IMG/VR virus record: IMGVR_UViG_3300035670_000139
Direction: 5' to 3' (one strand)
DNA length: 64,000 bases
Source of the DNA: a virus
Taxonomy: Duplodnaviria; Heunggongvirae; Uroviricota; Caudoviricetes
Part shown: in pieces, positions 2,514 to 63,869 of the stretch
Layout: each line of letters opens with the position of its first letter
How positions within the stretch are numbered: position 1 is the stretch's first letter
The notes under the pieces: model-generated
Databases searched by the model: none
What the model saw: the letters and a program-made list of their open reading frames with translations, nothing else
Told to the model about the DNA's origin: nothing
Position numbers and translations under genes: made by a program

Positions 2514-4279
2514 GTGTTGCCTGAAAGTAAAGTTTTATTGTTTTGAGTAGGTAAGTTGTTTAAATTTCTTCTATCAGCATAAATTTCAAAATCTTCTTTA
2601 GTTGGCTCTGGAATTAAATCTAGTATTTCAATTGCATCAGCTTTAGACCTTAGCATTAAAGCACTTGTGCCTTTACTAATTTGACCTCTTTCCCATATTT
2701 TACTAACCATTTCAATTTCATTTTTTACTGTCGGCCCATATTTTGAACTATCTAATGTAATTAATTGGTCATCATATTTTTTACCACCAACTGCCTTACA
2801 TAAGTTAGTTAATGGGTCTAATAAAATTACTTGAATTTTACCTTGTGTTCTTTCAAAGTTTTCAGTATTATACTGAGTAGCATTATTTGAATATTGTGCT
2901 TTTTGAGAAAGTGAGTTAGCAGATGTTGTTCCTGTAAATACTAAAATAGCCTCATCTAATTGCTTAATAGTTTCATTTCTATCTTGTTGTGTTAAAGTGC
3001 TAGGAATTTGCAATCCTTTAAAAGTATGCCCATCTATGTATGCCCCAGCAATAGGAGTTGTGTTTTCTGAGGTATTGTTAAAAGTATTAACAATACCTTT
3101 TACATATTCTTTTGTGACATTATCTAAAGTGTCTAAATTTACTGAACTTTCAATATTTGGTATTGGTTCAAGGCTTAAAATAGTATTTGGCATGCCATTT
3201 GTATTTGCTGTTCTACGAGATGATGAATGAAACTCATTTGCAGCTAAAATTGTATTAATAATTGCAAAGAATGGGCTAATGCAATTAGTATAAAATGCAA
3301 GATCATTTCTATAAGAAGGAGACATTGTTGGTAGTGGGACATTATTAGTATTATTAGATAATATCCATTGCATTGTTTGTTCATAACCCCATTTACTATC
3401 ATGGTTAAATGATTTAATATCTACCTCTCTTTGTTGAGCTTTACTGTTTGTTCTTTCTTGAGCTAAAATTTGACTATAGAGATCTTTATCTGGATTACTT
3501 ACATAAAACAAAATTTTAACTTTACCCATCTCTTCTCTAATGTAATTAGACATAGCATCGGTGCCTGTTATGTTTTCTCTTCGTTCTATATTTACTGGGT
3601 CAAATGGATTGTATATGTAAAACTCATCATTGATTTCATTTATTACTTTTGGTTTTTCTGTTAAATTATATTTTTTAAATAAAGCATCATCATTAACCAC
3701 CTCACTTGCTAACATTTTTCTTGATGTATTAACAAATCTTATTGGTTGATTATTAAGCTTACTTAATTTAATATCTAAATTACTTAATTGAAAAAATCGA
3801 ATATTATTATCTGTGTTATTTGTATTAATTGCACCCAATGTAATTTCGGTTGGCACATCTATATATGTTACTTCCGCATTGTCTATACTGAAAATATTAT
3901 TTGTATCAAAAGAAAAAACCATAGAGGCAAAACCATCAAAGAAATATTCTTTAATAAATTTATCTAATAATTGTTTTCTACTTATAATAAAAGGCACACA
4001 ATTAGGTTTTGCTATTCTTTTTAAAACATTATATAGTAATCCAGCATTAACTTCTGGATCTGCTTTACCTTTTATAGACGATTTAACTTTAATTTCATAA
4101 TTTTCTAGTTGGTTTGTTATATTTGTAACAGCTAAATTAGCTGGTTTATTAATTTTAATATGGTCTTTATAATATATTGGGGCAGATGCAGTTGTTTGAT
4201 TTATTGTTGCCGATGGTAATGTGGATGTTTGTTTTTCTGATGAATTATATTTCCCAGCGACATTAGAAAGTATTGCCAT
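2510..4279 (-). CDS. Hypothetical 589-aa protein on the strand opposite to the head genes; function unknown, portal not excluded
   Basis: Long uninterrupted ORF in ~28% GC DNA. Asn-rich like the rest of the proteome. No recognisable motif. Confidence 0.55.
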   Translation of the reverse strand: MAILSNVAGKYNSSEKQTSTLPSATINQTTASAPIYYKDHIKINKPANLAVTNITNQLENYEIKVKSSIKGKADPEVNAGLLYNVLKRIAKPNCVPFIISRKQLLDKFIKEYFFDGFASMVFSFDTNNIFSIDNAEVTYIDVPTEITLGAINTNNTDNNIRFFQLSNLDIKLSKLNNQPIRFVNTSRKMLASEVVNDDALFKKYNLTEKPKVINEINDEFYIYNPFDPVNIERRENITGTDAMSNYIREEMGKVKILFYVSNPDKDLYSQILAQERTNSKAQQREVDIKSFNHDSKWGYEQTMQWILSNNTNNVPLPTMSPSYRNDLAFYTNCISPFFAIINTILAANEFHSSSRRTANTNGMPNTILSLEPIPNIESSVNLDTLDNVTKEYVKGIVNTFNNTSENTTPIAGAYIDGHTFKGLQIPSTLTQQDRNETIKQLDEAILVFTGTTSANSLSQKAQYSNNATQYNTENFERTQGKIQVILLDPLTNLCKAVGGKKYDDQLITLDSSKYGPTVKNEIEMVSKIWERGQISKGTSALMLRSKADAIEILDLIPEPTKEDFEIYADRRNLNNLPTQNNKTLLSGNT

Positions 4280-4295
4280 TTTTTTAAAAAAAATA

Positions 4296-4341
4296 TTGAC
4301 TTTTATTTTTAATTGTATAATCTTTTAAAGTAAAAGTCAAG
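4296..4341. promoter_or_regulatory. Divergent overlapping promoter pair
   Basis: Plus strand: TTGACT 4296-4301 with TGTATAAT 4314-4321 (short 14-nt spacer). Minus strand: TTGACT (reverse complement of 4335-4340), 17-nt spacer, TACAAT (reverse complement of 4312-4317), upstream of the minus-strand ORF that starts at 4279. Confidence 0.35.
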
Positions 4342-11731: not shown

Positions 11732-13378
11732 TTGATGAATATGGCAAATACCTCGTTTCCAAATATACAATCTGTTAATCAAATTGCTTTTACACCACTA
11801 GACCAAGTATTAACTACTGGCAGGGTATTAATTGTTGGCCAAAGTAAAAATATTACTACAACAAAAGAATTTTATGCTAATATTCAACTATGGGATAAGG
11901 CAACTATTGAAAATACTTTTGGTAAAGGGCAAGAAATTACAATGAAACTTTTAGATGCCTTAACTATTACAAACCAATCGCCAATCAATGCTTACAAACC
12001 AATCATTGATGCAATTTGCTATAAGGACGATGAAGCAACTTGGGGCGATGCTACATTTTGGATAGATGTCACTGGCACAAGCTCTATTAGTGGTTCGGTT
12101 AAAATTGTTTTTAATAAAAATAATATTAACAGACTAAATGCTGAAATTGCAACTCGTTTTGCAATGATGAAACATGAAAATGCTGCGGTAAATGGTATTT
12201 CATTGGAAGGCAATACTTTGCTTGGTTCTCCAAAAAACATATCTAAACCATTTAACCAAAAATACAATACTTCCTATGAAAATGATAGTTTCATTATTGT
12301 AGATATAGCAAAAAATGCAACAAACTTAACGGTGGCGTCTGCAATAAATAGTGCTATTAATAATAATTCTAATATTCCTTTTACTTCAACGGTAAGTAAT
12401 GGTAGAGTTATCTTAACGCCAAAAAACAAAGGTGCAGCGGTCAATTCTTATAATATACAAGAGGTTACTAACACAACTAACAAAAGTATTACATTGGCAT
12501 TTTCATTAAATACTCCAGTTAATGTTGACAATGTTCCTGATTTAACAAATTTCTTTACAACGCCTGTTAATGGGGATGGCGTAACAATTGACAATATTAA
12601 GTATGATTTTTTCTCCTTTCCAACAGAATATCTAAAAAAATCTGCTAATTTTACAGTAATTGCAAACGCATTACAAGTTAAATATAACTCACCTTTAAAT
12701 AATAACATAAGTGATGGACATGTTATTTTCTTTGATAGTTTAAATACATCAGATGATACGGAAATTAATAGTTTAGCAACAAAATTTCCTATTGATGAAA
12801 ATTTGAATAGTAATAGAAACTCAAATTTTAGTGTTGTTGCATTAAAGAAAAATGGTTTATCAAACCAAGCTGTGATTAGTAGTTTAGATATTAGTAAATT
12901 AGCAGCTAAAAAGTTTTCATATTGCAGTCTTGCAAACGATGTATTACAACAAGCTCCAATTTATACATTGAAAATTAGTGGTGATTTTCAAGATTTATTA
13001 GTAAATAAACTAGTTAATAGATATCAAAGATTATTTACAAGCATTGCATTATTAAGAGGTGAACTTTTAGAAAAAAATTATACTGATAATAAAGATATTA
13101 TTGACCCTAATAATTATGTAAATAAAGCTACTATTATTTTATTATTCCAGCAAATTAATAAAGCATTAACAATTGGCGATATAAATGACGAGCTGTATAG
13201 TGATAAATTTGCTGGTATTATAGATACTAATGAGCAAGTAAATGATTTATTTAATCAAATACTAGATAATGGTATTAAATTTGATGTAGGTAGTAAAACT
13301 TTAAGTGTAGATACTTATAATAAATATCCTAATGCTTTGGAAGGTATTTTGATTAATAATAAATATACAAACCAATAA
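11732..13378 (+). CDS. Tail sheath protein candidate
   Basis: 548 aa, followed directly by a 133-aa ORF. Sheath-tube-chaperones-tape-measure synteny matches Mu/P2-like tails. Confidence 0.45.
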   Translation: MMNMANTSFPNIQSVNQIAFTPLDQVLTTGRVLIVGQSKNITTTKEFYANIQLWDKATIENTFGKGQEITMKLLDALTITNQSPINAYKPIIDAICYKDDEATWGDATFWIDVTGTSSISGSVKIVFNKNNINRLNAEIATRFAMMKHENAAVNGISLEGNTLLGSPKNISKPFNQKYNTSYENDSFIIVDIAKNATNLTVASAINSAINNNSNIPFTSTVSNGRVILTPKNKGAAVNSYNIQEVTNTTNKSITLAFSLNTPVNVDNVPDLTNFFTTPVNGDGVTIDNIKYDFFSFPTEYLKKSANFTVIANALQVKYNSPLNNNISDGHVIFFDSLNTSDDTEINSLATKFPIDENLNSNRNSNFSVVALKKNGLSNQAVISSLDISKLAAKKFSYCSLANDVLQQAPIYTLKISGDFQDLLVNKLVNRYQRLFTSIALLRGELLEKNYTDNKDIIDPNNYVNKATIILLFQQINKALTIGDINDELYSDKFAGIIDTNEQVNDLFNQILDNGIKFDVGSKTLSVDTYNKYPNALEGILINNKYTNQ

Positions 13379-41393: not shown

Positions 41394-43187
41394 ATGTCAA
41401 AATATTATATAGATTATAATAGAAACAAAAATTTTACAACTTTTGGTTTAACAACTTTAAAAGATAGGTATCTAAGTTTGAAATCTAATACATCCAATGA
41501 AAAAGAAGACCCTCAAGAAATGTTTGCAAGAATAGCAAGTGCTTATGCAGATGACATAGAACATGAGGTTAGATTGTATAATTACATGTCTAATTTTTGG
41601 TTTATGCCAGCAACCCCTATTTTAACTAACGCAGGAACCACTAGGGGATTGCCAATATCTTGTTTTTTAAATGAAGTGCAAGATAATATTAATGGCATTG
41701 CAAAAACATACAATGAAAATATTTATTTAGCTTCAAGTGGTGGTGGAATTGGAACTAATTGGAGTAATGTTAGAGGTATTGGGGAGCAAATTGTCAATAA
41801 AGGTAATAGTTCTGGCATTATGCCGTTTTTAAAAGTAGCAGATTCAATGTCTTTAGCTATTAGTCAAGGTGGCATTAGAAGAGGTTCTTCTGCTCAATAT
41901 TTGCATATATCTCACCCTGAAATTGAAGAATTTATTGATGTAAGAAGACCAACTGGGGATAACAATAGAAGGTCTTTAAATATACATCATGGGATTGTAA
42001 TACCTGACGAGTTTATGCAAAAAGTAAAAAATGGTGAAATGTGGCAGTTAAAAAGCCCTAAAACTGGTAAAATTGTAAGCGAGGTGTCGGCACAAGAGTT
42101 GTGGATTAAAATACTTACTGCAAGGGTAGAAACTGGTGAGCCTTACTTATTATTTATTGATAATGTAAATAAATATACACCAGAACATCATAAAAAACTT
42201 GGGTTAAGTGTAAAAACAAGTAATCTTTGTAGTGAAATTACTTTGCCGACTGGTATAGACCATTTAGGTAAAGAAAGAACGGCAGTATGTTGTTTATCTT
42301 CAGTAAATTTAATACATTATAAAGATTGGGAAAATGATATAAACTTTATACCAGACATTATGCGTTTTTTAGATAATGTGTTAGAAGATTTTATTAATAA
42401 AGCACCAAATGAAATAGAAAGGGCAAAATATTCTGCAATGAGAGAACGAAGTGTTGGTTTAGGTGTAATGGGTTTTCATTCTTTTTTACAATCTCAAAAT
42501 GTGCCTTTTGAAGGAGTAATGGCTCAATCTTGGAATAAAAGAATATTTAAGCATTTAAAAACAGAATGTGACAAAATATCTAAAAAATTAGCAATTGAAA
42601 AAGGCTCTTGCCCTGATGCAAAAGATGCTGGTATTATAGAAAGATTTTCTTATAAAATTGCAATTGCCCCAACTGCAAATATTTCAAATATTTGTGGCGA
42701 GGCTAGTCCAGGTATAGAACCTTCAGCAGCAAATGTTTTTACACAAAAAACTCTTAGTGGATCATTTACTATTAAAAATAAATATTTACAAAATTTATTA
42801 CAATCTAAAGGATATAACACGGAAGAAATTTGGTCTAGTATTGCTACACAAGAAGGCTCTGTGCAGCATTTAGACTTTTTAACACCAATAGAAAAAGAGG
42901 TATTTAAAACTGCTTTTGAGTTAAATCAAGAATGGATAATAGAACATGCAGCAGATAGAACACCTTTTGTTTGTCAAGCTCAATCAGTAAATTTATTTTT
43001 ACTATCCGATGTATCTAAAAAAGTATTAAATGCAATACACTTTAATGCTTGGAAAAAAGGCGTTAAAAGTTTATATTATTGTCGCAGTAGGTCAAAACAA
43101 AGGGCAGATAAAGTAAGTCAAAAAATTACAACAAATAATTTGAATATCAATGAAAATAAATACGAAGAATGTTTAGCTTGCCAGTGA
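41394..43187 (+). CDS. Ribonucleotide reductase catalytic (alpha) subunit
   Basis: PATPILTNAGT, LPISCFLNEV, active-site SNLCSEI (N-x-C-x-E) and a C-terminal Cys pair (ECLACQ). 597 aa without an ATP cone. No beta subunit in the window, which is compatible with class II, but the class cannot be called from sequence alone. Confidence 0.85.
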   Translation: MSKYYIDYNRNKNFTTFGLTTLKDRYLSLKSNTSNEKEDPQEMFARIASAYADDIEHEVRLYNYMSNFWFMPATPILTNAGTTRGLPISCFLNEVQDNINGIAKTYNENIYLASSGGGIGTNWSNVRGIGEQIVNKGNSSGIMPFLKVADSMSLAISQGGIRRGSSAQYLHISHPEIEEFIDVRRPTGDNNRRSLNIHHGIVIPDEFMQKVKNGEMWQLKSPKTGKIVSEVSAQELWIKILTARVETGEPYLLFIDNVNKYTPEHHKKLGLSVKTSNLCSEITLPTGIDHLGKERTAVCCLSSVNLIHYKDWENDINFIPDIMRFLDNVLEDFINKAPNEIERAKYSAMRERSVGLGVMGFHSFLQSQNVPFEGVMAQSWNKRIFKHLKTECDKISKKLAIEKGSCPDAKDAGIIERFSYKIAIAPTANISNICGEASPGIEPSAANVFTQKTLSGSFTIKNKYLQNLLQSKGYNTEEIWSSIATQEGSVQHLDFLTPIEKEVFKTAFELNQEWIIEHAADRTPFVCQAQSVNLFLLSDVSKKVLNAIHFNAWKKGVKSLYYCRSRSKQRADKVSQKITTNNLNINENKYEECLACQ

Positions 43188-43289
43188 ATCACCCAACCGC
43201 TAAAGACGATGCGGTTTTACGGATTAGGAAATAAAGTGTGAATCACCCAACCGCTAAAGACGATTGGGCTTCAAGGTTCGTAGCTTTGT

Positions 43290-44450
43290 CTATTGACAAC
43301 AGCTCCCCTCGCTTTTAACGACCATTCCAGCCGCTATGTTTAGACCTTGTCGCAAAATATTTCTACTTGCAAGTAGGTCTCTGTTATGTGTTGTTTCACA
43401 ATTGTCACAAGTCCACTCTCTATCTTTTAAAGTTAGACTTTGATTAATTGTGCCACACACATCGCACATTCTACTTGATGGAAAAAATCTATCAATTATT
43501 ACTAATTGACGACCTTTCCATTTGCACTTATATTTAAGTTGTCGCTTAAATTCGTGCCAACTAACATCCGATATAGCTTGTGCCAATTTATGATTTTTAA
43601 TCATATTAGACACGGCTAAATCTTCCAAACAAATAATTTGGTTTTCATTACTTATTTGGTTTGTTATTTTGTGTAAATAATCTTTTCTGATATTAGAAAT
43701 TTTTAAATGGTATTTTGCAAGTTTTAATTGTCTTTTTTTTCTTATACCGCTACTTTTATTTGATTTACTTAATTGTCTTTGTAAATATTTAAGTTTTTTC
43801 ATTTTGCGTTTTAATGGTTTAATATTTTCATATACCACACCATTGGAGCAAGTTGCAAAATCTTTTATACCTAAATCAATACCTATTGCTTTTTGTAAGT
43901 TATCTAAAGTTTTAACTTCCTTTTCAACAATAATAGAAACATAATATTGATTATTACAATTTTTTGATATAGTAGCAACAACAAATTTGCCATCTAATTT
44001 TCTATGCTCTTTTACTTTTATGCCATTTTTAAACTTTGGAAAATATATTTTATTATTTTCTAGTTTAAAAAATTGCGGAATTGTAAAGCTCTGTTTGTTA
44101 TTTTTATTTTTAAATTTTGGAAATTGATGTGTTTTTCTAAAAAACATTTTGTAACTGCTATCAAGATGTTTTAAAGTTGCTTGTAAAGACTGTGCATTGC
44201 ATTCATTTAACCATTGAAATCCATCTTGTTTTTTTAGCTTGGTTAAATCTTTTGAGTTATCGTAGTAATTTAAACATCCTTTTATTCTTTTAGCTTCAAT
44301 GTTCTCTTTATTATTAATGTAATATTCTTTTCTTTGATTTAAAAAATAGTTCCAAACAAATCTACAACTGCCAAAGTGTTTTGCAAGTAATATTTTTTGC
44401 TCTGCGTTTGGATATATCCTAAACTTATAAGCCATATTTATTACTTGCAT
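43290..44450 (-). CDS. tnpB: TnpB (OMEGA RNA-guided nuclease, RuvC-like plus zinc finger)
   Basis: RuvC-I GIDLGIKDFATCSNG, zinc finger CDVCGTINQ...CDNCETT, and RuvC-III HNRDLLASRNI (D.NAA.NI-like). The catalytic residues appear intact. Confidence 0.85.
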   Translation of the reverse strand: MQVINMAYKFRIYPNAEQKILLAKHFGSCRFVWNYFLNQRKEYYINNKENIEAKRIKGCLNYYDNSKDLTKLKKQDGFQWLNECNAQSLQATLKHLDSSYKMFFRKTHQFPKFKNKNNKQSFTIPQFFKLENNKIYFPKFKNGIKVKEHRKLDGKFVVATISKNCNNQYYVSIIVEKEVKTLDNLQKAIGIDLGIKDFATCSNGVVYENIKPLKRKMKKLKYLQRQLSKSNKSSGIRKKRQLKLAKYHLKISNIRKDYLHKITNQISNENQIICLEDLAVSNMIKNHKLAQAISDVSWHEFKRQLKYKCKWKGRQLVIIDRFFPSSRMCDVCGTINQSLTLKDREWTCDNCETTHNRDLLASRNILRQGLNIAAGMVVKSEGSCCQ

Positions 44451-44500
44451 TTTGTTTTATTATCAATACTATACTATAATTGTAATTTGTATAATTTAAA

Positions 44501-44902
44501 ATGTCAAGTAATATTTCAAAAAATCGTAAAAAATATTTATTAAAAATACATTTAATTTTTGCGTGCAAATATCGTAAAAAATTATTAATTAATCCAATTG
44601 ATAAAGATATTAAGCAGATTATGCTAATAATATCTTCAATATCAGATTTTAAGATTGATATAATGGAAACTGATCAAGACCATATACATCTTTTACTTAA
44701 TATATCACCAAATTATTCAATTAGCAGTATAGTTAATCGTTTAAAATCTATTTCAACAAATATGATATGGAAAAAACATCACAATCTGTTAGTAAAACAT
44801 TTTTGGAAAGAAAAAACATTTTGGAGTGATGGATATTTTGTTAATTCTATTGGCAATGCAAACTTGGAAACAGTAAGACATTATATTGAAAATCAAGGTT
44901 AA
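44501..44902 (+). CDS. tnpA: IS200/IS605 HuH tyrosine transposase TnpA
   Basis: HuH motif HIHLLL and a catalytic Tyr in WSDGYFVNSIG. 133 aa. Confidence 0.9.
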   Translation: MSSNISKNRKKYLLKIHLIFACKYRKKLLINPIDKDIKQIMLIISSISDFKIDIMETDQDHIHLLLNISPNYSISSIVNRLKSISTNMIWKKHHNLLVKHFWKEKTFWSDGYFVNSIGNANLETVRHYIENQG

Positions 44903-45002
44903 AATCCTTACATCCGCACCGCTAAAGACGATGAGGTTTTACGGATTAGGATATAAATATAGTGTTTGAACTACCAAAGAAATTTTGGTAGTTAAATGAA
45001 TA

Positions 45003-45455
45003 TTAAACCCCAGTAGAACCAAATCCACCCTCACCTCTTGCGGTTTCTTCTAAATCTTTAACTTCTTGAATATGTGCTTTTACAACAGGGCAAAAAACAC
45101 CCTGTGCAATTCTTGCATTTGGTTCAACAATATAATCTTGCTTACCAAGATTATATAAAATTACTTTAATTTCACCTCTATAATCACTATCTATCGTGCC
45201 TGGCGAGTTTAAAACAACTATTTGATTTTTAAAAGCAAGACCAGAGCGAGAGCGGATTTGTAATTCGTATTGATTAGTAAATTCACTTGATAAGCCTGTT
45301 GGAATTAAAGCAACCTCGTTTGGTTTAATAGTAATAGACTTTTCAATACAAGCTTGTAAATCAAAACCAGCACTTCCTTCGGTTTGGTATTGTGGTAAAG
45401 TTGCCTTGTCGTTTAGCTTTTTAAAAGATAAAGTGTGAAAATGTGTGTTAAACAT
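45003..45455 (-). CDS. dut: dUTP diphosphatase (trimeric dUTPase)
   Basis: All five dUTPase motifs: SAGFDLQA, IRSRSGLA, GTIDSDYRGEI, RIAQ, RGEGGFGSTG. Confidence 0.9.
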   Translation of the reverse strand: MFNTHFHTLSFKKLNDKATLPQYQTEGSAGFDLQACIEKSITIKPNEVALIPTGLSSEFTNQYELQIRSRSGLAFKNQIVVLNSPGTIDSDYRGEIKVILYNLGKQDYIVEPNARIAQGVFCPVVKAHIQEVKDLEETARGEGGFGSTGV

Positions 45456-45474
45456 AATTAATAAATAAAAAATA

Positions 45475-45759
45475 TTAAATTTTGTATGCCTTTATTAAAA
45501 AATCTTCTACCTGTTTGTATATTAACTTGTATATAATACCACTATCACCGTATGGCATAGCAAAAATATTTTCAATTTGAATTTTTAAATCTTCTTCATT
45601 TGAATCTACATCATAATCTTTAAAATTTTCTAACATCATTTCTACATGTTCCATTGATTTACTAGTGTGATAAAGTCCTAATAGATTTATAGAATATTGT
45701 TCCGCTCGTGTTGAAAGCAACATTTCTTTTCCACGCACATTGATTTTTACATCGTTCAT
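45475..45759 (-). CDS. Hypothetical protein
   Basis: 94-aa ORF. Confidence 0.4.
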   Translation of the reverse strand: MNDVKINVRGKEMLLSTRAEQYSINLLGLYHTSKSMEHVEMMLENFKDYDVDSNEEDLKIQIENIFAMPYGDSGIIYKLIYKQVEDFLIKAYKI

Positions 45760-45937
45760 ATTTTAACAAAAAATAAAATAAACAAAAAGAGATTATAAGA
45801 TATATTATATTATTTGATAATATTAAATAGTCAAGTTATTTTTAACATTATTTTACTTGACTTTTAATACTATTAAATAGAAAATAACATTAGAAAGGTT
45901 TTCAACTGCCTTTCTACCTCCTTTAATGACTTGTTTC

Positions 45938-45957
45938 TCCCCCAAGTAATTGGGGGA
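45938..45957 (+). promoter_or_regulatory. GC-rich hairpin with GNRA (GUAA) tetraloop in the 5' leader of the SSB-like gene
   Basis: TCCCCCAA-GTAA-TTGGGGGA: a perfect 8-bp stem, which stands out in ~28% GC DNA. It lies 27 nt upstream of the ATG at 45984 and downstream of a TTGACT promoter-like element (~45857). Confidence 0.4.
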
Positions 45958-45983
45958 CATTAATAAAGTTTGTAATAAATAAT

Positions 45984-46328
45984 ATGATAAATGAATTAAA
46001 ATTTTTTGGTAAATTAGATAAAAAAGAAATTAAAAATACTAACAACAAAGAATATATTGTTTTTAGCCTTACGCAAAAAGAGATAAAAGAATATAATGGT
46101 AATGTAACAGAAAAAGATATTACAATAGATAAATTCCAAGCTTGGAATGCTACTATTATTAATAACTTAAAAAGTAGCAATGTTGGCGATGAAATAGAAA
46201 TTGTAGCTAAAATAACTTCATATAAAAATGATAAAGGTTATATTAACAATTCTTTCCAAGTTTTAAAATTAGAAGTAAAAAAAACTAACGCAACTCAATC
46301 AGTTGAGGATGAAGAAATTCCTTTTTAG
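45984..46328 (+). CDS. Possible single-stranded DNA-binding protein (OB fold)
   Basis: 114 aa. The pattern FFGKL..KE...YIVFSLTQKE......DKFQAWNATIINNLKSSNVGDEIEIVAKITSYKNDKG is reminiscent of SSB core strands. Weak. Confidence 0.3.
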   Translation: MINELKFFGKLDKKEIKNTNNKEYIVFSLTQKEIKEYNGNVTEKDITIDKFQAWNATIINNLKSSNVGDEIEIVAKITSYKNDKGYINNSFQVLKLEVKKTNATQSVEDEEIPF

Positions 46329-46375
46329 TTATTTAAAGTTCTTTTTTAATTATTTAATTATTTATTTTATTTTAT

Positions 46376-47194
46376 ATGGATTATCGTGATAGACCACAAC
46401 TTCAACTAAAGCATATTGCTATAGGCATTATAGGTATTGTTGCAGTCTCAACTCTTATAGGTAGTTTTAAAATCATTAAAACCTCTCAAGTTGGTATTAA
46501 ATCAAGATTTGGCTTAGTATCTAACAATATTTTAGAAGAGGGATTTCATTTTAAAATACCTTTTGTTGATAGTATTGAAAAAATATCACTTAAGCAACAT
46601 CAAGAAAATTTTACAATAGAAAATACACAAACAAAAGATTTGCAGCCAGTTAGCGTATCATATAAAGTTATCTATTCTATACCTGCAAGTAAAGTGATAT
46701 ACAATAAAAAAAGCTTAAATGGGGATATTTTTGAAGTATTGATAAAACCAAGAGCAAATGAAACTATTATGAATGTGTTAGCAACTTATCCAGCTGAGGA
46801 TTTAATAAGTAATCGTGATGCCGTAATATCAATGGTAAAAAAGAAATTAGCAGAAAGAGTAACGGAGCACGCTAATATTGATGATATTTCTATTACAGAT
46901 TATCAGTTCCAAGATACGAGGTTTACAGCGGCAGTGCAAAATAAAGTTGTTGCTAAACAAAACGCTCAATCAGCGGAAATTAAAAAACAACAAGCACAAG
47001 CCGAAGCAGACCAAATATTAATTAAAGCAAAAGCAGATGCGGAATCTATTAAAATTAAAGCAAATGCCCTTTCCAATAATCCAAAGTTAGTTGATTTAAC
47101 AATTGCTGAAAAATGGGATGGTAAAGCCCCTACAAGTGTTGTAATTACTGGCGGCAATCCAAGTAATTTAATTTTACCTATTAAGTCTAATTAG
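46376..47194 (+). CDS. SPFH/band-7 (stomatin/prohibitin/HflKC-like) membrane protein
   Basis: N-terminal TM segment, then QVGIKSRFGLVSNNILEEGFHFKIPFVDSIEKISLKQ (SPFH signature), then a coiled coil (AKQNAQSAEIKKQQAQAEADQILIKAKADAESIKIKA). Confidence 0.6.
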   Translation: MDYRDRPQLQLKHIAIGIIGIVAVSTLIGSFKIIKTSQVGIKSRFGLVSNNILEEGFHFKIPFVDSIEKISLKQHQENFTIENTQTKDLQPVSVSYKVIYSIPASKVIYNKKSLNGDIFEVLIKPRANETIMNVLATYPAEDLISNRDAVISMVKKKLAERVTEHANIDDISITDYQFQDTRFTAAVQNKVVAKQNAQSAEIKKQQAQAEADQILIKAKADAESIKIKANALSNNPKLVDLTIAEKWDGKAPTSVVITGGNPSNLILPIKSN

Positions 47195-47211: not shown

Positions 47212-47634
47212 ATGCAAAAACCATCTTATTATGCAAAACTTGCAATAGACCCGCTTGAATATGCTTACAAAAATAAATTAAATCCATACCAATTTAATGC
47301 AATTAAATACATTACTCGCTACAAAGATAAAAATGGTATAGAAGATTTACAAAAAGCAATACATTGCTTAGAAGAGTTTAAAGAAATACTATGTCAAAAC
47401 AATACAAATCCAACAGTTAGTGAAGTTAGTGCAGAAGTTAAGTTTGCAATAGACCCTTTTGAATACGCTTATAAAAATAAACTAAATGAATATGAGGTGA
47501 ATGCTATTGGATATATAACTTACTCTGCTCTGGAAAAAGCAATAACTATTTTACAGAAATACTCCGCTCTAGAAAAAGCAATAACTATTTTACAGAAATT
47601 AATTCAAATTGAAACAGAAAATCAAAAACTATAA
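47212..47634 (+). CDS. DUF3310-like phage protein with internal duplications
   Basis: AIDPLEYAYKNKLNPYQFNAIKYITRYKDKNGIEDLQKAIHCLEEF matches the DUF3310 pattern. The motif repeats (AIDPFEYAYKNKLNEYEVNAIGYIT), and a 39-bp tandem duplicate at 47521-47598 (YSALEKAITILQK x2) follows. Confidence 0.5.
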   Translation: MQKPSYYAKLAIDPLEYAYKNKLNPYQFNAIKYITRYKDKNGIEDLQKAIHCLEEFKEILCQNNTNPTVSEVSAEVKFAIDPFEYAYKNKLNEYEVNAIGYITYSALEKAITILQKYSALEKAITILQKLIQIETENQKL

Positions 47635-50043: not shown

Positions 50044-51309
50044 TTAAATCAATATTCCGTCTTTTGCAGAGTAGACTAAATCCATTTTAGAAGTGTCAAT
50101 CCTTCCTTTAATAGATTTTTTACCGCTATCGGTAATCGGGTCTTTGTAGACATCTTGCCAAACTTCTTTTCCGTCTATATTCAGACAAATTGCAGATGTT
50201 TTATAAGCAAATTTTAAAGTATCCCTACTGCAATTTTGCATTAAATCACCACCAGAGCCAAAGACAAAATTAGCAGGTGAAAACATTTTATCAGTAAAGT
50301 GTTGTAAAATATTTTCTATTTGCTTTGCGGTAATACCATCTCCCCAAAGAATACGATATTTTTTAAATAATTTGTAACCTTTGTCATTTGTAGTAAATTG
50401 CACTTTATTTTTATCAAAAATTTCTAACATTTTTGTAATAACTTCAATAGGGTTGCCACTGTCAGGTCTAATAACCCAAATCGGATAAGAATTACTTTCA
50501 ATTCTATCTTTCATGGAACCTGATGTTTGAAAATCTGTTGCTTTGTAAATATCATAGCTATCAGATACACAAGCGACAATAGAATAACTTTTAAATGTTT
50601 CTAATAAATTTTCCATTGCTTTAAATTCATTTTCCCTGCCCCAGCTCGTAATAGTTGAATGCTCCGATGCAGGAACGGAAAAGCCAGTTTTTGCATGTAA
50701 GACTGCATTAAAGTTATCAGTCCCTTTAAATTGAGTTAAATGAGCCATGCCACCTATTTTAGCACTTTCAACACTACTTGAACCTCTATCTCCAAAGTTG
50801 TGATAAGCAAAATCAACCCCAGCCACATCCTCGCCAGCTTTTTGATAAAAAGATGTTATCATTTGTTTAATGTAATAACATCTTGTTGCTATTGTAGTCG
50901 GATACCAAAGTTTCAACAAGTAAGTTTCTAAAAAAGAAGGCAACCAAAAATAGTTGTTATCGGTATTTTCTACAACAAGCAAAGGTTGTGAAATGTCGTG
51001 TAATTCATTTTCTTTTACCGCATATATATTGATAGGTAAATGTATATGTCCTTTTTTATTTTGTAAATTCAAACCATCAAAACCTTCTTTGTTATATGGT
51101 AAGCCATGTTGCTCTACAAGTTTTTGCCAATCTATTAGTCCATTTTGATATGTATTTAAACCATATAAATGTTCTTTTAAACCAGTAAAAAACACTTTTT
51201 TGAAGCCTTCGTCTGAGCCTCTGGCGGAAAGATAACAATGTATTTTTTTTGTGTTTTTAGGGTATTGTAAATAATGTGAAAATTTGTAAGAGTCCGTTAA
51301 GTGTAGCAT
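50044..51309 (-). CDS. nadV: Nicotinamide phosphoribosyltransferase (NAMPT/NadV)
   Basis: N-terminal LHLTDSYKFSHYLQYPKNTKKIHCYLSARGS matches NAMPT (NTDSYK.tHy.QYP). 421 aa. Confidence 0.8.
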   Translation of the reverse strand: MLHLTDSYKFSHYLQYPKNTKKIHCYLSARGSDEGFKKVFFTGLKEHLYGLNTYQNGLIDWQKLVEQHGLPYNKEGFDGLNLQNKKGHIHLPINIYAVKENELHDISQPLLVVENTDNNYFWLPSFLETYLLKLWYPTTIATRCYYIKQMITSFYQKAGEDVAGVDFAYHNFGDRGSSSVESAKIGGMAHLTQFKGTDNFNAVLHAKTGFSVPASEHSTITSWGRENEFKAMENLLETFKSYSIVACVSDSYDIYKATDFQTSGSMKDRIESNSYPIWVIRPDSGNPIEVITKMLEIFDKNKVQFTTNDKGYKLFKKYRILWGDGITAKQIENILQHFTDKMFSPANFVFGSGGDLMQNCSRDTLKFAYKTSAICLNIDGKEVWQDVYKDPITDSGKKSIKGRIDTSKMDLVYSAKDGILI

Positions 51310-62050: not shown

Positions 62051-62644
62051 ATGGAATTAGTAACAATATCAAAAGCAAAAAAACTACTTGGAGTAACACC
62101 TCAAACAATGCGTAATTGGGATAAAAATGGCAAGATAAAGCCAGTTAAAAGAGCTAAAAATGGTTTTCGCTATTATAATCTATTAGATATACAAAATTTA
62201 GTAAAGCCAAAAAATAAAATGATTATAGGCTATTGTCGTGTATCTTCTAAAAAACAAGAAGATGATTTATGCAGACAAATTGAAAATGTAAAAACATTTA
62301 TGATAGCTAAAGGATATAGTTTTGAAATAATACAGGATATAGGCTCTGGAATTAACTATACTAAAAATGGCTTAAATGAATTAATCACTAAAGTTATTAA
62401 TGGTAATGTTGAGAAAGTTGTTATATTATATAAAGACAGATTGCTGCGTTTTGGATTTGAATTATTAGAAAGCATATTTCAAAAATATAATTGTAAAATT
62501 GAAATTATTGATAATACAGAAAAAACAGAGGAACAAGAATTAGTTGAGGATTTAATACAAATTGTGACAGTTTTTTCTTGTAAATTACAAGGCAAAAGAA
62601 GCAAAAAAACAAAAGCATTAATTAACGAGTTAAAAAATGATTAA
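62051..62644 (+). CDS. tnpA: IS607-type serine recombinase transposase (MerR-like HTH plus resolvase catalytic domain)
   Basis: N-terminal MerR-type HTH (AKKLLGVTPQTMRNWDKNGKIKP..NGFRYY), then catalytic IIGYCRVSSKKQEDDL (Y-x-R-V-S-x-x-x-Q). 197 aa. Confidence 0.8.
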   Translation: MELVTISKAKKLLGVTPQTMRNWDKNGKIKPVKRAKNGFRYYNLLDIQNLVKPKNKMIIGYCRVSSKKQEDDLCRQIENVKTFMIAKGYSFEIIQDIGSGINYTKNGLNELITKVINGNVEKVVILYKDRLLRFGFELLESIFQKYNCKIEIIDNTEKTEEQELVEDLIQIVTVFSCKLQGKRSKKTKALINELKND

Positions 62645-63869
62645 ATCCTTCAAAGTTCGTCTTGAACCAAACAATAAACAAAAATCTTTGTTGTTTGCAA
62701 ATGCAAGTGTTGCAAGATTTGCATACAATTGGACTTTAGAACAACAGCAACTCAATTACAAGAATGGTGGTAAGTTTATTAGTCATTTTGATTTACGCAA
62801 AAAATTAACCCAATTAAAACAAAAAGAACTAAGCTGGCTATACAACTATGATGTTGATATTGTAAAACAAGCAGTAAAAGATGCTTGCGATAGTTATATT
62901 AAATTCTTTAATAAAGGCTTTGGATTTCCAAGATTTAAAAGTAAAAGATTTTCAAAACCTAGTTTTTTTGTTGATAATTATAAAATCAAAATCTTTGAAA
63001 ATAGCATTAAAATTCCAAAACTTAAGTCAAACATAAAATTAAGTGAAAATGGATATATCCCATTGAATGTAAAATATTCTAACCCAAGAATTACTTTTGA
63101 TGGAGTAAATTGGTTTTTATCTGTTGGAGTTGATATTGAAAATGAAATACAAGAACTCACAAATGAAACACTTGGAATTGATGTAGGTTTAAAAGATGCT
63201 TTAATTAGAAGTGATGGAATTATACATAAAAATATCAATAAAACTAAAAAAATTAAAACATTAAGAAAAAAACATAATAAACTTAAAAAATCAATTAGTA
63301 GAAAATATGAAAGAAACAAAATTGGTAAAAAATTTATCAAAACTCAAAATATTAAAAAAGCTGAGTTAAAATCAAATAAACTTTACAAAAAGTTAAACGA
63401 TATACAAACTGACTATTTCAACAAAGTAGCCATTTCAATTGCGAGAACCAAGCCAAAAAAGATTGTTATGGAAAAGTTGAATATTGATGGGATGCGAAAG
63501 AATAAATGTCTTTCAAAAGCCTTTCAAGAAGCTAGTTTGCATAAATTCAAAACTAAAATTCAAAATAAATGTTTGGAGTTTGGGATTGAATTTATTGAGG
63601 CTGGAACATTTTTTCCATCCTCAAAAAGATGTAGTCATTGTGGAGCAATTAAAAAAGACTTGAAATTAAAAGATAGAGTTTTTAAATGCGATACATGCGA
63701 CTTTCAAATAGACAGGGACGAAAACGCAAGTCAAAATCTCAAACAATACCCTGAGTTACAGGGGAATTTAAGCCTTTGGAGTGCTAAATCAAAAGAAAGT
63801 AGTCGCAAGACAAAATCTGGCACCGAGAAGAAGGAAAAAAGCAAAAAACTTAATAGAGTAGCAATATGA
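62637..63869 (+). CDS. tnpB: TnpB (OMEGA RNA-guided nuclease)
   Basis: RuvC-I GIDVGLKDALIRSDG, zinc finger CSHCGAIKK...CDTCDFQ, and RuvC-III DRDENASQNL. 410 aa. Start overlaps tnpA by 8 nt. Confidence 0.85.
   Translation: MIKSFKVRLEPNNKQKSLLFANASVARFAYNWTLEQQQLNYKNGGKFISHFDLRKKLTQLKQKELSWLYNYDVDIVKQAVKDACDSYIKFFNKGFGFPRFKSKRFSKPSFFVDNYKIKIFENSIKIPKLKSNIKLSENGYIPLNVKYSNPRITFDGVNWFLSVGVDIENEIQELTNETLGIDVGLKDALIRSDGIIHKNINKTKKIKTLRKKHNKLKKSISRKYERNKIGKKFIKTQNIKKAELKSNKLYKKLNDIQTDYFNKVAISIARTKPKKIVMEKLNIDGMRKNKCLSKAFQEASLHKFKTKIQNKCLEFGIEFIEAGTFFPSSKRCSHCGAIKKDLKLKDRVFKCDTCDFQIDRDENASQNLKQYPELQGNLSLWSAKSKESSRKTKSGTEKKEKSKKLNRVAI

Follow-up and report, generated by a model that had tools for sequence, protein, structure and literature searches.

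The stretch of DNA analysed here is a 64,000-nt window from the tailed-phage record IMGVR_UViG_3300035670_000139 (Caudoviricetes), and position numbers refer to this window unless another sequence is named. Between its convergent genes for ribonucleotide reductase (RNR) and dUTPase (dut) it very probably carries an intact, apparently functional transposable element of the IS200/IS605 family, IS605 type, together with an extra 54 bp that include what we read as the remnant of a second element copy, collapsed by deletion. Judged from the sequence, every feature that characterizes an IS605-type member of this family was found. The element and the genes that it comprises or adjoins are as follows.

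43238-44952, minus strand: complete IS200/IS605-family element of 1,715 bp, boundaries to within ±1 nt (comparison of ends across copies, empty sites and open reading frame reconstructions).
41394-43187, plus strand: RNR, gene for the large subunit of class I ribonucleotide reductase, 597 aa (Pfam Ribonuc_red_lgN and Ribonuc_red_lgC).
43290-44450, minus strand: tnpB, encoding an RNA-guided nuclease of 386 aa (Pfam HTH_OrfB_IS605, OrfB_IS605 and TNB domain).
44501-44902, plus strand: tnpA, encoding a Y1 HUH transposase of 133 aa (Pfam Y1_Tnp, E = 1.4e-36, 126 bits).
45003-45455, minus strand: dut, the flanking dUTPase gene (Pfam dUTPase, E = 6.8e-32).

Read along the minus strand, which we treat as the top strand of the element, the order is left end, tnpA (antisense), tnpB and right end, with the two genes transcribed divergently. 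The original prediction, made from the sequence alone, was of an IS605-type element with tnpA and an intact tnpB filling the gap between RNR (plus strand) and dut (minus strand), and both the identity and the placement of the element were upheld by Pfam and NCBIfam matches, aligned catalytic residues and the positions of the open reading frames. TnpB scored 341 bits against the NCBIfam model guided_TnpB (cutoff 100) and 403 bits against the stricter IS200_TnpB 'exception' model, just below its cutoff of 425 bits, and matched the ISDra2 TnpB structures over 373 aa (E = 7e-68). The RuvC triad D192/E276/D358 aligns with D191/E278/D361 of ISDra2, and four zinc-finger cysteines (C329, C332, C348 and C351) are invariant across relatives, in agreement with the earlier claim that catalytic and zinc-finger residues have been kept. 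TnpA scored 130 bits against the NCBIfam model transpos_IS200 (cutoff 55) and is homologous to IS608 TnpA (E = 1e-18); its HUH motif H61-I-H63 aligns with H64/H66 of IS608 and its Y128 with Y127.

The ends of the element were located by comparison with other copies. A TnpB protein search identified copies that were 78-100 % identical on contigs with differing neighbours, representing at least 6 contexts, and the sequence 3' of tnpB was aligned in the tnpB-sense strand (the minus strand of the window). At the right junction all eight close copies, drawn from 6 contexts, read ...TCGTCTTTAGCGG[T/A]TGGGT[NN]TTCAC and diverge thereafter, and 11 more distant relatives from bacterial and archaeal genomes (TnpB 49-65 % identical) end in (T/C)TCAC. 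Since the right ends of other copies terminate at TTCAC and differ beyond it, 43238 and not the RNR stop codon was taken as the true right end of the element. On the opposite side, TTTAT was found directly before all ten left ends examined (the 8 close copies plus L034 and L041). TTTAT and TTCAC, rather than the TTAC-type sites that had been suggested, are the cleavage motifs. The end features mapped in this way are listed below.

43238-43242, minus strand: transposon-encoded end motif (TEM) TTCAC, right end of the full element, from the right junctions of 19 copies.
44953-44957, minus strand: transposon-adjacent motif (TAM) TTTAT (ATAAA on the plus strand), in the native flank.
43245-43269, minus strand: right-end subterminal hairpin GCCCAATCGT-CTTTA-GCGGTTGGGT, 8 pairs, 5 with compensatory changes.
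44914-44936, minus strand: left-end subterminal hairpin CCTCATCGT-CTTTA-GCGGTGCGG, one stem mismatch, with covariation in the basal stem.

The apical half of the hairpin, TCGT-CTTTA-GCGG, is common to the two ends. The left basal stem is C[G]CA/TGCG and the right one GCCCA/TGGGT; each covaries among copies, the left one being CGCA/TGCG in L009, L014, L029 and L030 and ATAA/TTAT in L011 and L032. At the mismatch in the left stem the window has T where other copies have G. Both hairpins are direct in orientation on one strand, without terminal inverted repeats, and the right-end hairpin is the predicted site of TnpA binding as well as the predicted last stem of the guide RNA (omegaRNA) scaffold.

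Joining the flanks of copies in other contexts in silico yielded sequences that support the mapped junctions. In L009 the joined flanks restore a methyltransferase (MTase) C-terminus, LKNNRFF-I-TCEKDNNFFQIANDRI (NNRFF-I-TCEKD...), which matches the MTase of the window, LTNNRQFLTCEKDVKFFNIANERI (NNRQFLTCEKD), and in L014 they give a SocA-like C-terminus, ...KNDIIEEFRPYL, similar to DDDIKKEFEAY of L032. The L009 copy, 85 % identical to the element described here, is located inside a second MTase gene (2392-2502 and 4214-4310). Approximately 28 N-terminal and 40 C-terminal codons of this gene are left; without the element these remnants would be joined in frame, so that the gene seems to have suffered its internal deletion before, or independently of, the insertion.

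Between the mapped right end and the native RNR sequence, which extends to 43183, lie the extra 54 bp (43184-43237), comprising two segments.

43184-43230, minus strand: 47-nt gene-less hybrid remnant, in which a left-end 5' arm is followed by the shared hairpin core and by a right-end tail ending in TTCAC.
43231-43237, minus strand: 7-nt spacer between the remnant and the true right end, plus-strand sequence ATAAAGT, minus-strand sequence ACTTTAT.

The remnant reads TTCCTAATCCGTAAAACCGCA-TCGTCTTTAGCGG-TTGGGTGATTCAC on the minus strand, its 5' part matching the left ends of other copies and its 3' part their right ends, and is closed by a second TTCAC at 43184-43188 that abuts the RNR gene. 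The final codon base of RNR (G, 43184) and its TGA stop (43185-43187) are transposon-derived sequence. RNR homologues always end in C-x-x-C-[Q/E]-stop, and the RNR protein has not been altered by the insertion, because the right-end-type sequence GTGAA (plus strand) provides the last codon base and the stop. The proposal of an insertion precisely at the RNR stop was therefore correct in locating it at the very end of the gene, but what adjoins RNR is the remnant and not the intact element.

These segments also account for the repeats noticed earlier. The RNR stop TGA and the 26-bp unit TGAATCACCCAACCGCTAAAGACGAT, at 43185-43210 and 43239-43264, were confirmed at their reported positions, the identity really covering 27 bp since a G is shared at 43184 and 43238; one copy falls in the right-end half of the remnant, the other in the genuine right-end tail. 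A direct repeat identical at 33 of 34 positions (43196-43229 and 44918-44951), which extends to 38/40, likewise has one copy in the remnant, in its left-end half, and the other at the genuine left end. This repeat is real, but it does not mark both ends of the element as had been proposed, given that its copy at 43196-43229 belongs to the remnant outside the true right end. The window contains three occurrences of a 15-nt core, ACCGCTAAAGACGAT, where 0.03 would be expected by chance. The 54-bp segment was 100 % identical in three independent assemblies (L001, L002 and L018), so that an assembly artefact is unlikely. The contigs of L002, L016 and L018 end in the left-end hairpin (equivalent to 44918-44947 of the window), a sequence that is repeated in the remnant; short-read assemblers fragment the locus at this repeat, and allele frequencies consequently cannot be read from contigs.

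Alleles of the same site in close relatives provided the most direct view of what has been inserted. Empty alleles were retrieved from Logan assemblies via members of the RNR protein cluster. In L113 and L114, whose RNR DNA is 98.9 % and 99.2 % identical to that of the window, only 46 bp separate RNR from dut, the sequence being ...GCTTGCCAG TAA ATATAGTGTTTGA-hairpin-dut (RNR end TGC CAG TAA), with no repeat units. The empty junction, at 4790-4800 of L113 and 3467-3477 of L114, is equivalent to position 43183 of the window joined to 44953, and comparison of empty with occupied sites revealed no target-site duplication. In L019 (RNR DNA 99.66 % identical) only a 47-nt hybrid was found between RNR and dut, without tnpA or tnpB. 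It corresponds to 43184-43210 of the window fused to 44933-44952, including the G-to-T change in the stem that is private to the resident left end, and is exactly what a deletion of 1,722 bp joining the cores at 43196-43210 and 44918-44932 would be expected to leave. Three alleles have thus been observed at one site: empty, full element plus remnant, and remnant only. A further contig, P0247, has a 46-bp gap between the genes and is an empty-looking candidate, judged by gene spacing alone.

The empty alleles also bear on the origin of the repeats and of the perfect 10-bp hairpin that the original prediction had assigned to the left end of the element.

44969-44993, no strand assigned: perfect 10-bp hairpin AACTACCAAA-GAAAT-TTTGGTAGTT, native intergenic sequence outside the element.

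The hairpin exists as described, but it is native phage sequence, present in L113, L114 and L019 and absent beside other copies of the element; tested as a canonical intrinsic terminator, it does not score. If the repeats were native too, tnpA and tnpB would merely have landed among existing intergenic sequence, a reading to which we give almost no credence. L019, which has a repeat unit and the hairpin without either gene, superficially presents the very pattern named beforehand as evidence for native repeats. It is overruled by the truly empty alleles, as L113 and L114 lack any repeat unit, which shows that the repeats are foreign to the phage and that the hairpin alone is native; moreover, the element is flanked by the same end sequences in unrelated contexts. 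An element spanning 43185-44966 with the target TTCA, identical to the RNR stop, was ruled out by the TTCAC right ends and TTTAT left ends, and also by the presence of AACACTATATTTA in empty sites. Wider searches gave no match to the exact gapped pattern of the empty site in JGI metagenomes, and neither a close relative of RNR or TnpB nor a copy of the hybrid junction in IMG/VR. Among GenBank phages there was no near match, the distant matches being only tnpB-internal stretches of unrelated phages, and IS605-type genes are already present in GenBank phage genomes.

The 47-nt hybrid within the extra 54 bp is best explained by a second element copy that collapsed through deletion between the identical 15-nt cores of its end hairpins. 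The original prediction had read this segment as a partial duplication of the right end left by abortive transposition or repair, with no second copy ever present. In its favour, the two copies of the 27-bp right-end tail are 100 % identical, and local templating is suggested by the likeness of the spacer to the native left flank ACT[ATAT]TTAT. However, the segment also includes left-end sequence (20 nt) that retains the canonical CCGCA stem, now lost from the resident left end, and the left arm, core and right tail of the segment together form the exact 47-nt product of a core-to-core deletion, a type of event that L019 shows to occur. A local duplication is accordingly improbable in our estimation, and the segment is better read as a collapsed second copy. 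IS200/IS605 TnpA dimers require a left-end and a right-end hairpin, as established for IS608 and ISDra2, which bears on whether the 47-nt unit could instead be a non-autonomous, MITE- or PATE-like mini-element, mobilized by TnpA in trans and inserted at TTTAT. The unit does keep both cleavage contexts, with TTTAT| before it and TTCAC| at its end, and occurs as two sequence variants, in the window and in L019. Nevertheless, it has a single hybrid hairpin with non-matching arms, both known copies are at one site, the L019 copy bears the private mutation of the resident left end, and no further copy was found in the 64-kb window, in IMG/VR or in the other loci fetched, all of which makes a mini-element very unlikely. 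PATE and MITE derivatives resemble the unit in being gene-less and in retaining the end sequences of a parent element. PATEs keep both end hairpins, are hundreds of bp long and are multi-copy, and the 47-nt unit does not have these properties. With one hybrid hairpin and a single site, it is best called a deletion remnant, not a PATE or MITE.

A guide RNA is predicted at the 3' end of tnpB and the right end of the element, as had been anticipated from the GC-rich sequence there (48 % GC for the omegaRNA-type segment, compared with 28.5 % for the window).

43238-43311, minus strand: 3' part of the predicted omegaRNA scaffold, overlapping the tnpB stop codon (RNAalifold covariation).
43222-43237, minus strand: predicted 16-nt guide segment ACTTTATTTCCTAATC, directly after the right end (position from the boundary, length by analogy with ISDra2).

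RNAalifold analysis of the last 180 nt before TTCAC at 13 loci gave a conserved structure of three helices, at 43311-43307/43276-43272, 43303-43295/43290-43283 (enclosing the tnpB stop) and 43269-43262/43252-43245. Sixteen of the 21 pairs are compensatory, with changes on both sides; helix cells were paired in 94 % of cases versus 32-46 % in slid-partner controls, and none of 500 shuffles reached the observed values. This covariation, which had been proposed as a check on the original prediction, supports a structure of the omegaRNA type. The guide itself was expected to be copied from the 3' end of RNR, but the right-end boundary at 43238 places it elsewhere. By analogy with ISDra2, the reRNA of which carries approximately 16 nt of flank (PMC8612924), the resident guide would be copied from the spacer and the remnant.

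Several observations weigh against the interpretation given so far. An Rfam scan of 42500-45500 at E <= 1 gave no family. The left arm of the remnant differs from the resident left end at 2 positions and so is not a fresh copy of that end. The spacer, which equals the native left flank ACT[ATAT]TTAT minus 4 nt and includes a TTTAT motif (43231-43235) adjoining the remnant, occurs in neither of the empty alleles (L113, L114) and is hence not native, which makes the exact history proposed for the remnant tentative. Two independent insertions at adjacent native TTTAT sites were ruled out for the same reason. The native flank GGTAGTTCAAAC (top strand, plus-strand positions 44964-44975) resembles the right-end terminus of the family, GGGTAGTTCAC; the likeness could be fortuitous, or it could have promoted an unequal crossover from which the second copy arose. 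One conceivable route would be unequal recombination between GGTAGTTCAAAC and the right-end terminus that it resembles, producing a tandem duplication that later collapsed to the remnant, and another would have the second copy arrive with captured flank. Finally, the top strand of both empty alleles has TTTAC|TGGC where TTTAT|TGGC would be predicted after precise excision.

This last discrepancy is the reason that the boundaries are fixed to ±1 nt only, unless the empty alleles carry a variant of the motif. We consider the latter likely, with the standard register holding, the cut falling after the full pentanucleotide and the variant motif of the empty genomes arising from a synonymous CAA-to-CAG difference. 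In the alternative the register is shifted leftwards by one base on the top strand, so that targets are cut as TTTA^C and the element occupies 43239-44953, starting with T and ending in TTCA. This shift, which we regard as unlikely, would predict TTTAC|TGGC in both independent empty alleles without extra mutation. Under the standard register, the neutral chance of this one position coinciding with the division into element-bearing and empty genomes is approximately 0.4 % (7 of 1,791 RNR sites). With the shift, the C following each right end would be target sequence. Experiments on ISGst2 and ISDra2 stand against the shift. In ISGst2 of Geobacillus stearothermophilus, with TAM TTTAT and TEM TTCAC, TnpA cuts 3' of each (10.1101/2023.03.14.532601), and ISDra2 inserts 3' of its pentanucleotide (PMC8612924); the pentanucleotide is intact in the donor joint. 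The reconstruction of the L009 MTase points the same way, giving Thr in the shifted register and Ile in the standard one at a hydrophobic MTase position, which is Leu in the MTase of the window and, by our own reading of the DNA, in the first MTase copy of L009. Furthermore, at the position 3 nt ahead of the hairpin foot left ends have A and right ends G, corresponding by analogy with IS608 to T3/C3 of a 5-nt motif, and the fifth base varies by clade as element sequence does, with TTCAA in Bacillaceae, Holdemanella and gammaproteobacterial relatives.

If the standard register holds, the 0.4 % chance points to selection, whereby element-free genomes persist with a disabled motif. TTTAC in L113 and L114, the sole element-free genomes read with an empty site here, would abolish a motif on which TnpA insertion and TnpB cleavage both depend, and we tentatively raise the possibility of motif escape from a homing drive. 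Were this true, it would be natural evidence of a TnpB-bearing element acting as a homing drive among co-infecting phages, with element-free phages surviving through loss of the motif.

From characterized relatives and the standard register, a transposition cycle can be proposed. TnpA would bind both subterminal hairpins (left 44914-44936, right 43245-43269) and cut single-stranded DNA on the 3' side of both the flanking TTTAT and the element's terminal TTCAC. The element would exit as a single-stranded circle, with the predicted junction TTCAC|ATCCTAATCC, and re-insert 3' of another TTTAT without target duplication; at the present locus the insertion struck the last codon of the RNR gene. TnpB, loaded with an omegaRNA made up of the tnpB 3' end, the right end and approximately 16 nt of flank, would cut the TTTAT-flanked excision joint, and recombination with a sister genome would restore the element. 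The predicted excision joints are TTTAT|ACTTTATTTCC for the inner TTCAC and TTTAT|TGGCAAGC for the outer one. The inner joint would match the resident guide, whereas the joint at the outer TTCAC (43184) would not.

Among the closest known systems, ISGst2 resembles the element in its motifs and gene content. The two share the TTTAT/TTCAC pair, in which the motifs differ at positions 3 and 5, and the combination of a Y1 TnpA, a TnpB and a guide RNA that comes from the right end. The target-adjacent motif of ISGst2 TnpB2 is TTTAT (10.1101/2023.03.14.532601). Alternative TEM-like TTCAC sites downstream of ISGst2 are usable and flank capture has been suggested as possible (10.1101/2023.03.14.532601), which is relevant to the two tandem TTCAC motifs found here. 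ISGst2 differs in its Bacillaceae chromosomal setting, the present element being in a phage genome of 28.5 % GC, and the Bacillaceae relatives of the element are approximately 40-43 % identical and end in TTCAA. ISDra2 of Deinococcus radiodurans (8BF8, 8EXA, 8H1J) is the closest natural TnpB with a solved structure. Its catalytic triad and zinc finger are identical, it likewise has a pentanucleotide target and takes a guide of approximately 16 nt from the right flank, but the target is TTGAT and not TTTAT, there is no Rfam RNA family in common, and its tnpA and tnpB partially overlap (PMC8612924) where those of the window are divergent. IS608 of Helicobacter pylori has a homologous TnpA, with the HUH motif and catalytic Tyr aligned, and its model, in which a guide 5' of the hairpin pairs with the target, applies here as well. 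IS605 has the same divergent tnpA/tnpB layout as the window element. In contrast, the target of IS605 and IS608 is TTAC and their ends are unrelated in sequence.

Much of this amounts to routine annotation: an intact IS605-family element with TnpA, TnpB, a guide RNA and ends to ±1 nt in an uncultured AT-rich tailed phage. Only the three-allele series and the TTTAC empty alleles appear to deserve follow-up. The former displays a route of decay, in which a core-to-core deletion leaves a 47-nt footprint. The arrangement in the window also leaves the resident guide uncoupled from the outer TTCAC boundary, where excision would escape TnpB repair, offering a natural test case for the retention model. 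The TTTAC motif of both empty alleles makes the idea of motif escape and homing testable in phage populations.

One further candidate feature lies within the element.

44479-44507, minus strand: promoter-like site TTGACA-17-TACAAT just upstream of tnpB, agreeing with the consensus at 11 of 12 positions.

Across the region, the total of promoter-like sites was no higher than in shuffled sequence. Elsewhere in the window a second, unrelated element encoding a guide-RNA nuclease is present at 62051-63869, near the window end (64000). It contains an IS607-family serine-recombinase transposase (62051-62644; NCBIfam transpos_IS607, 214 bits) that overlaps a 410-aa TnpB (62637-63869), which is 32 % identical to the IS605 TnpB.

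Additional variation was noted around the locus and among its relatives. Genomes that are 96-99 % identical (L019, L113) show mosaic differences around 45755-47194: a Band_7/SPFH gene (46376-47194) is missing from L019, which has approximately 810 bp extra after position 45775, and a 94-aa open reading frame (45475-45759) is missing from L113. A 140-aa open reading frame at 47212-47634 (Pfam DUF3310 on a 100 %-identical contig) contains an in-frame tandem repeat, YSALEKAITILQK twice, giving rise to 40-nt self-matches. The RNR large subunit encoded at 5236-7161 of L009 (P0122) is 740 aa long, compared with 597 aa in the window, and the difference may be an insertion or an intein. Named relatives include Rickettsiaceae and Candidatus Tisiphia (TnpB 64-65 %, RNR 63-66 %), which, together with the GC content of 28.5 %, hints at an AT-rich alphaproteobacterial host. 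A tail-sheath match at 11732-13378 and a NAMPT match at 50044-51309 support the identification of the genome as that of a tailed phage.

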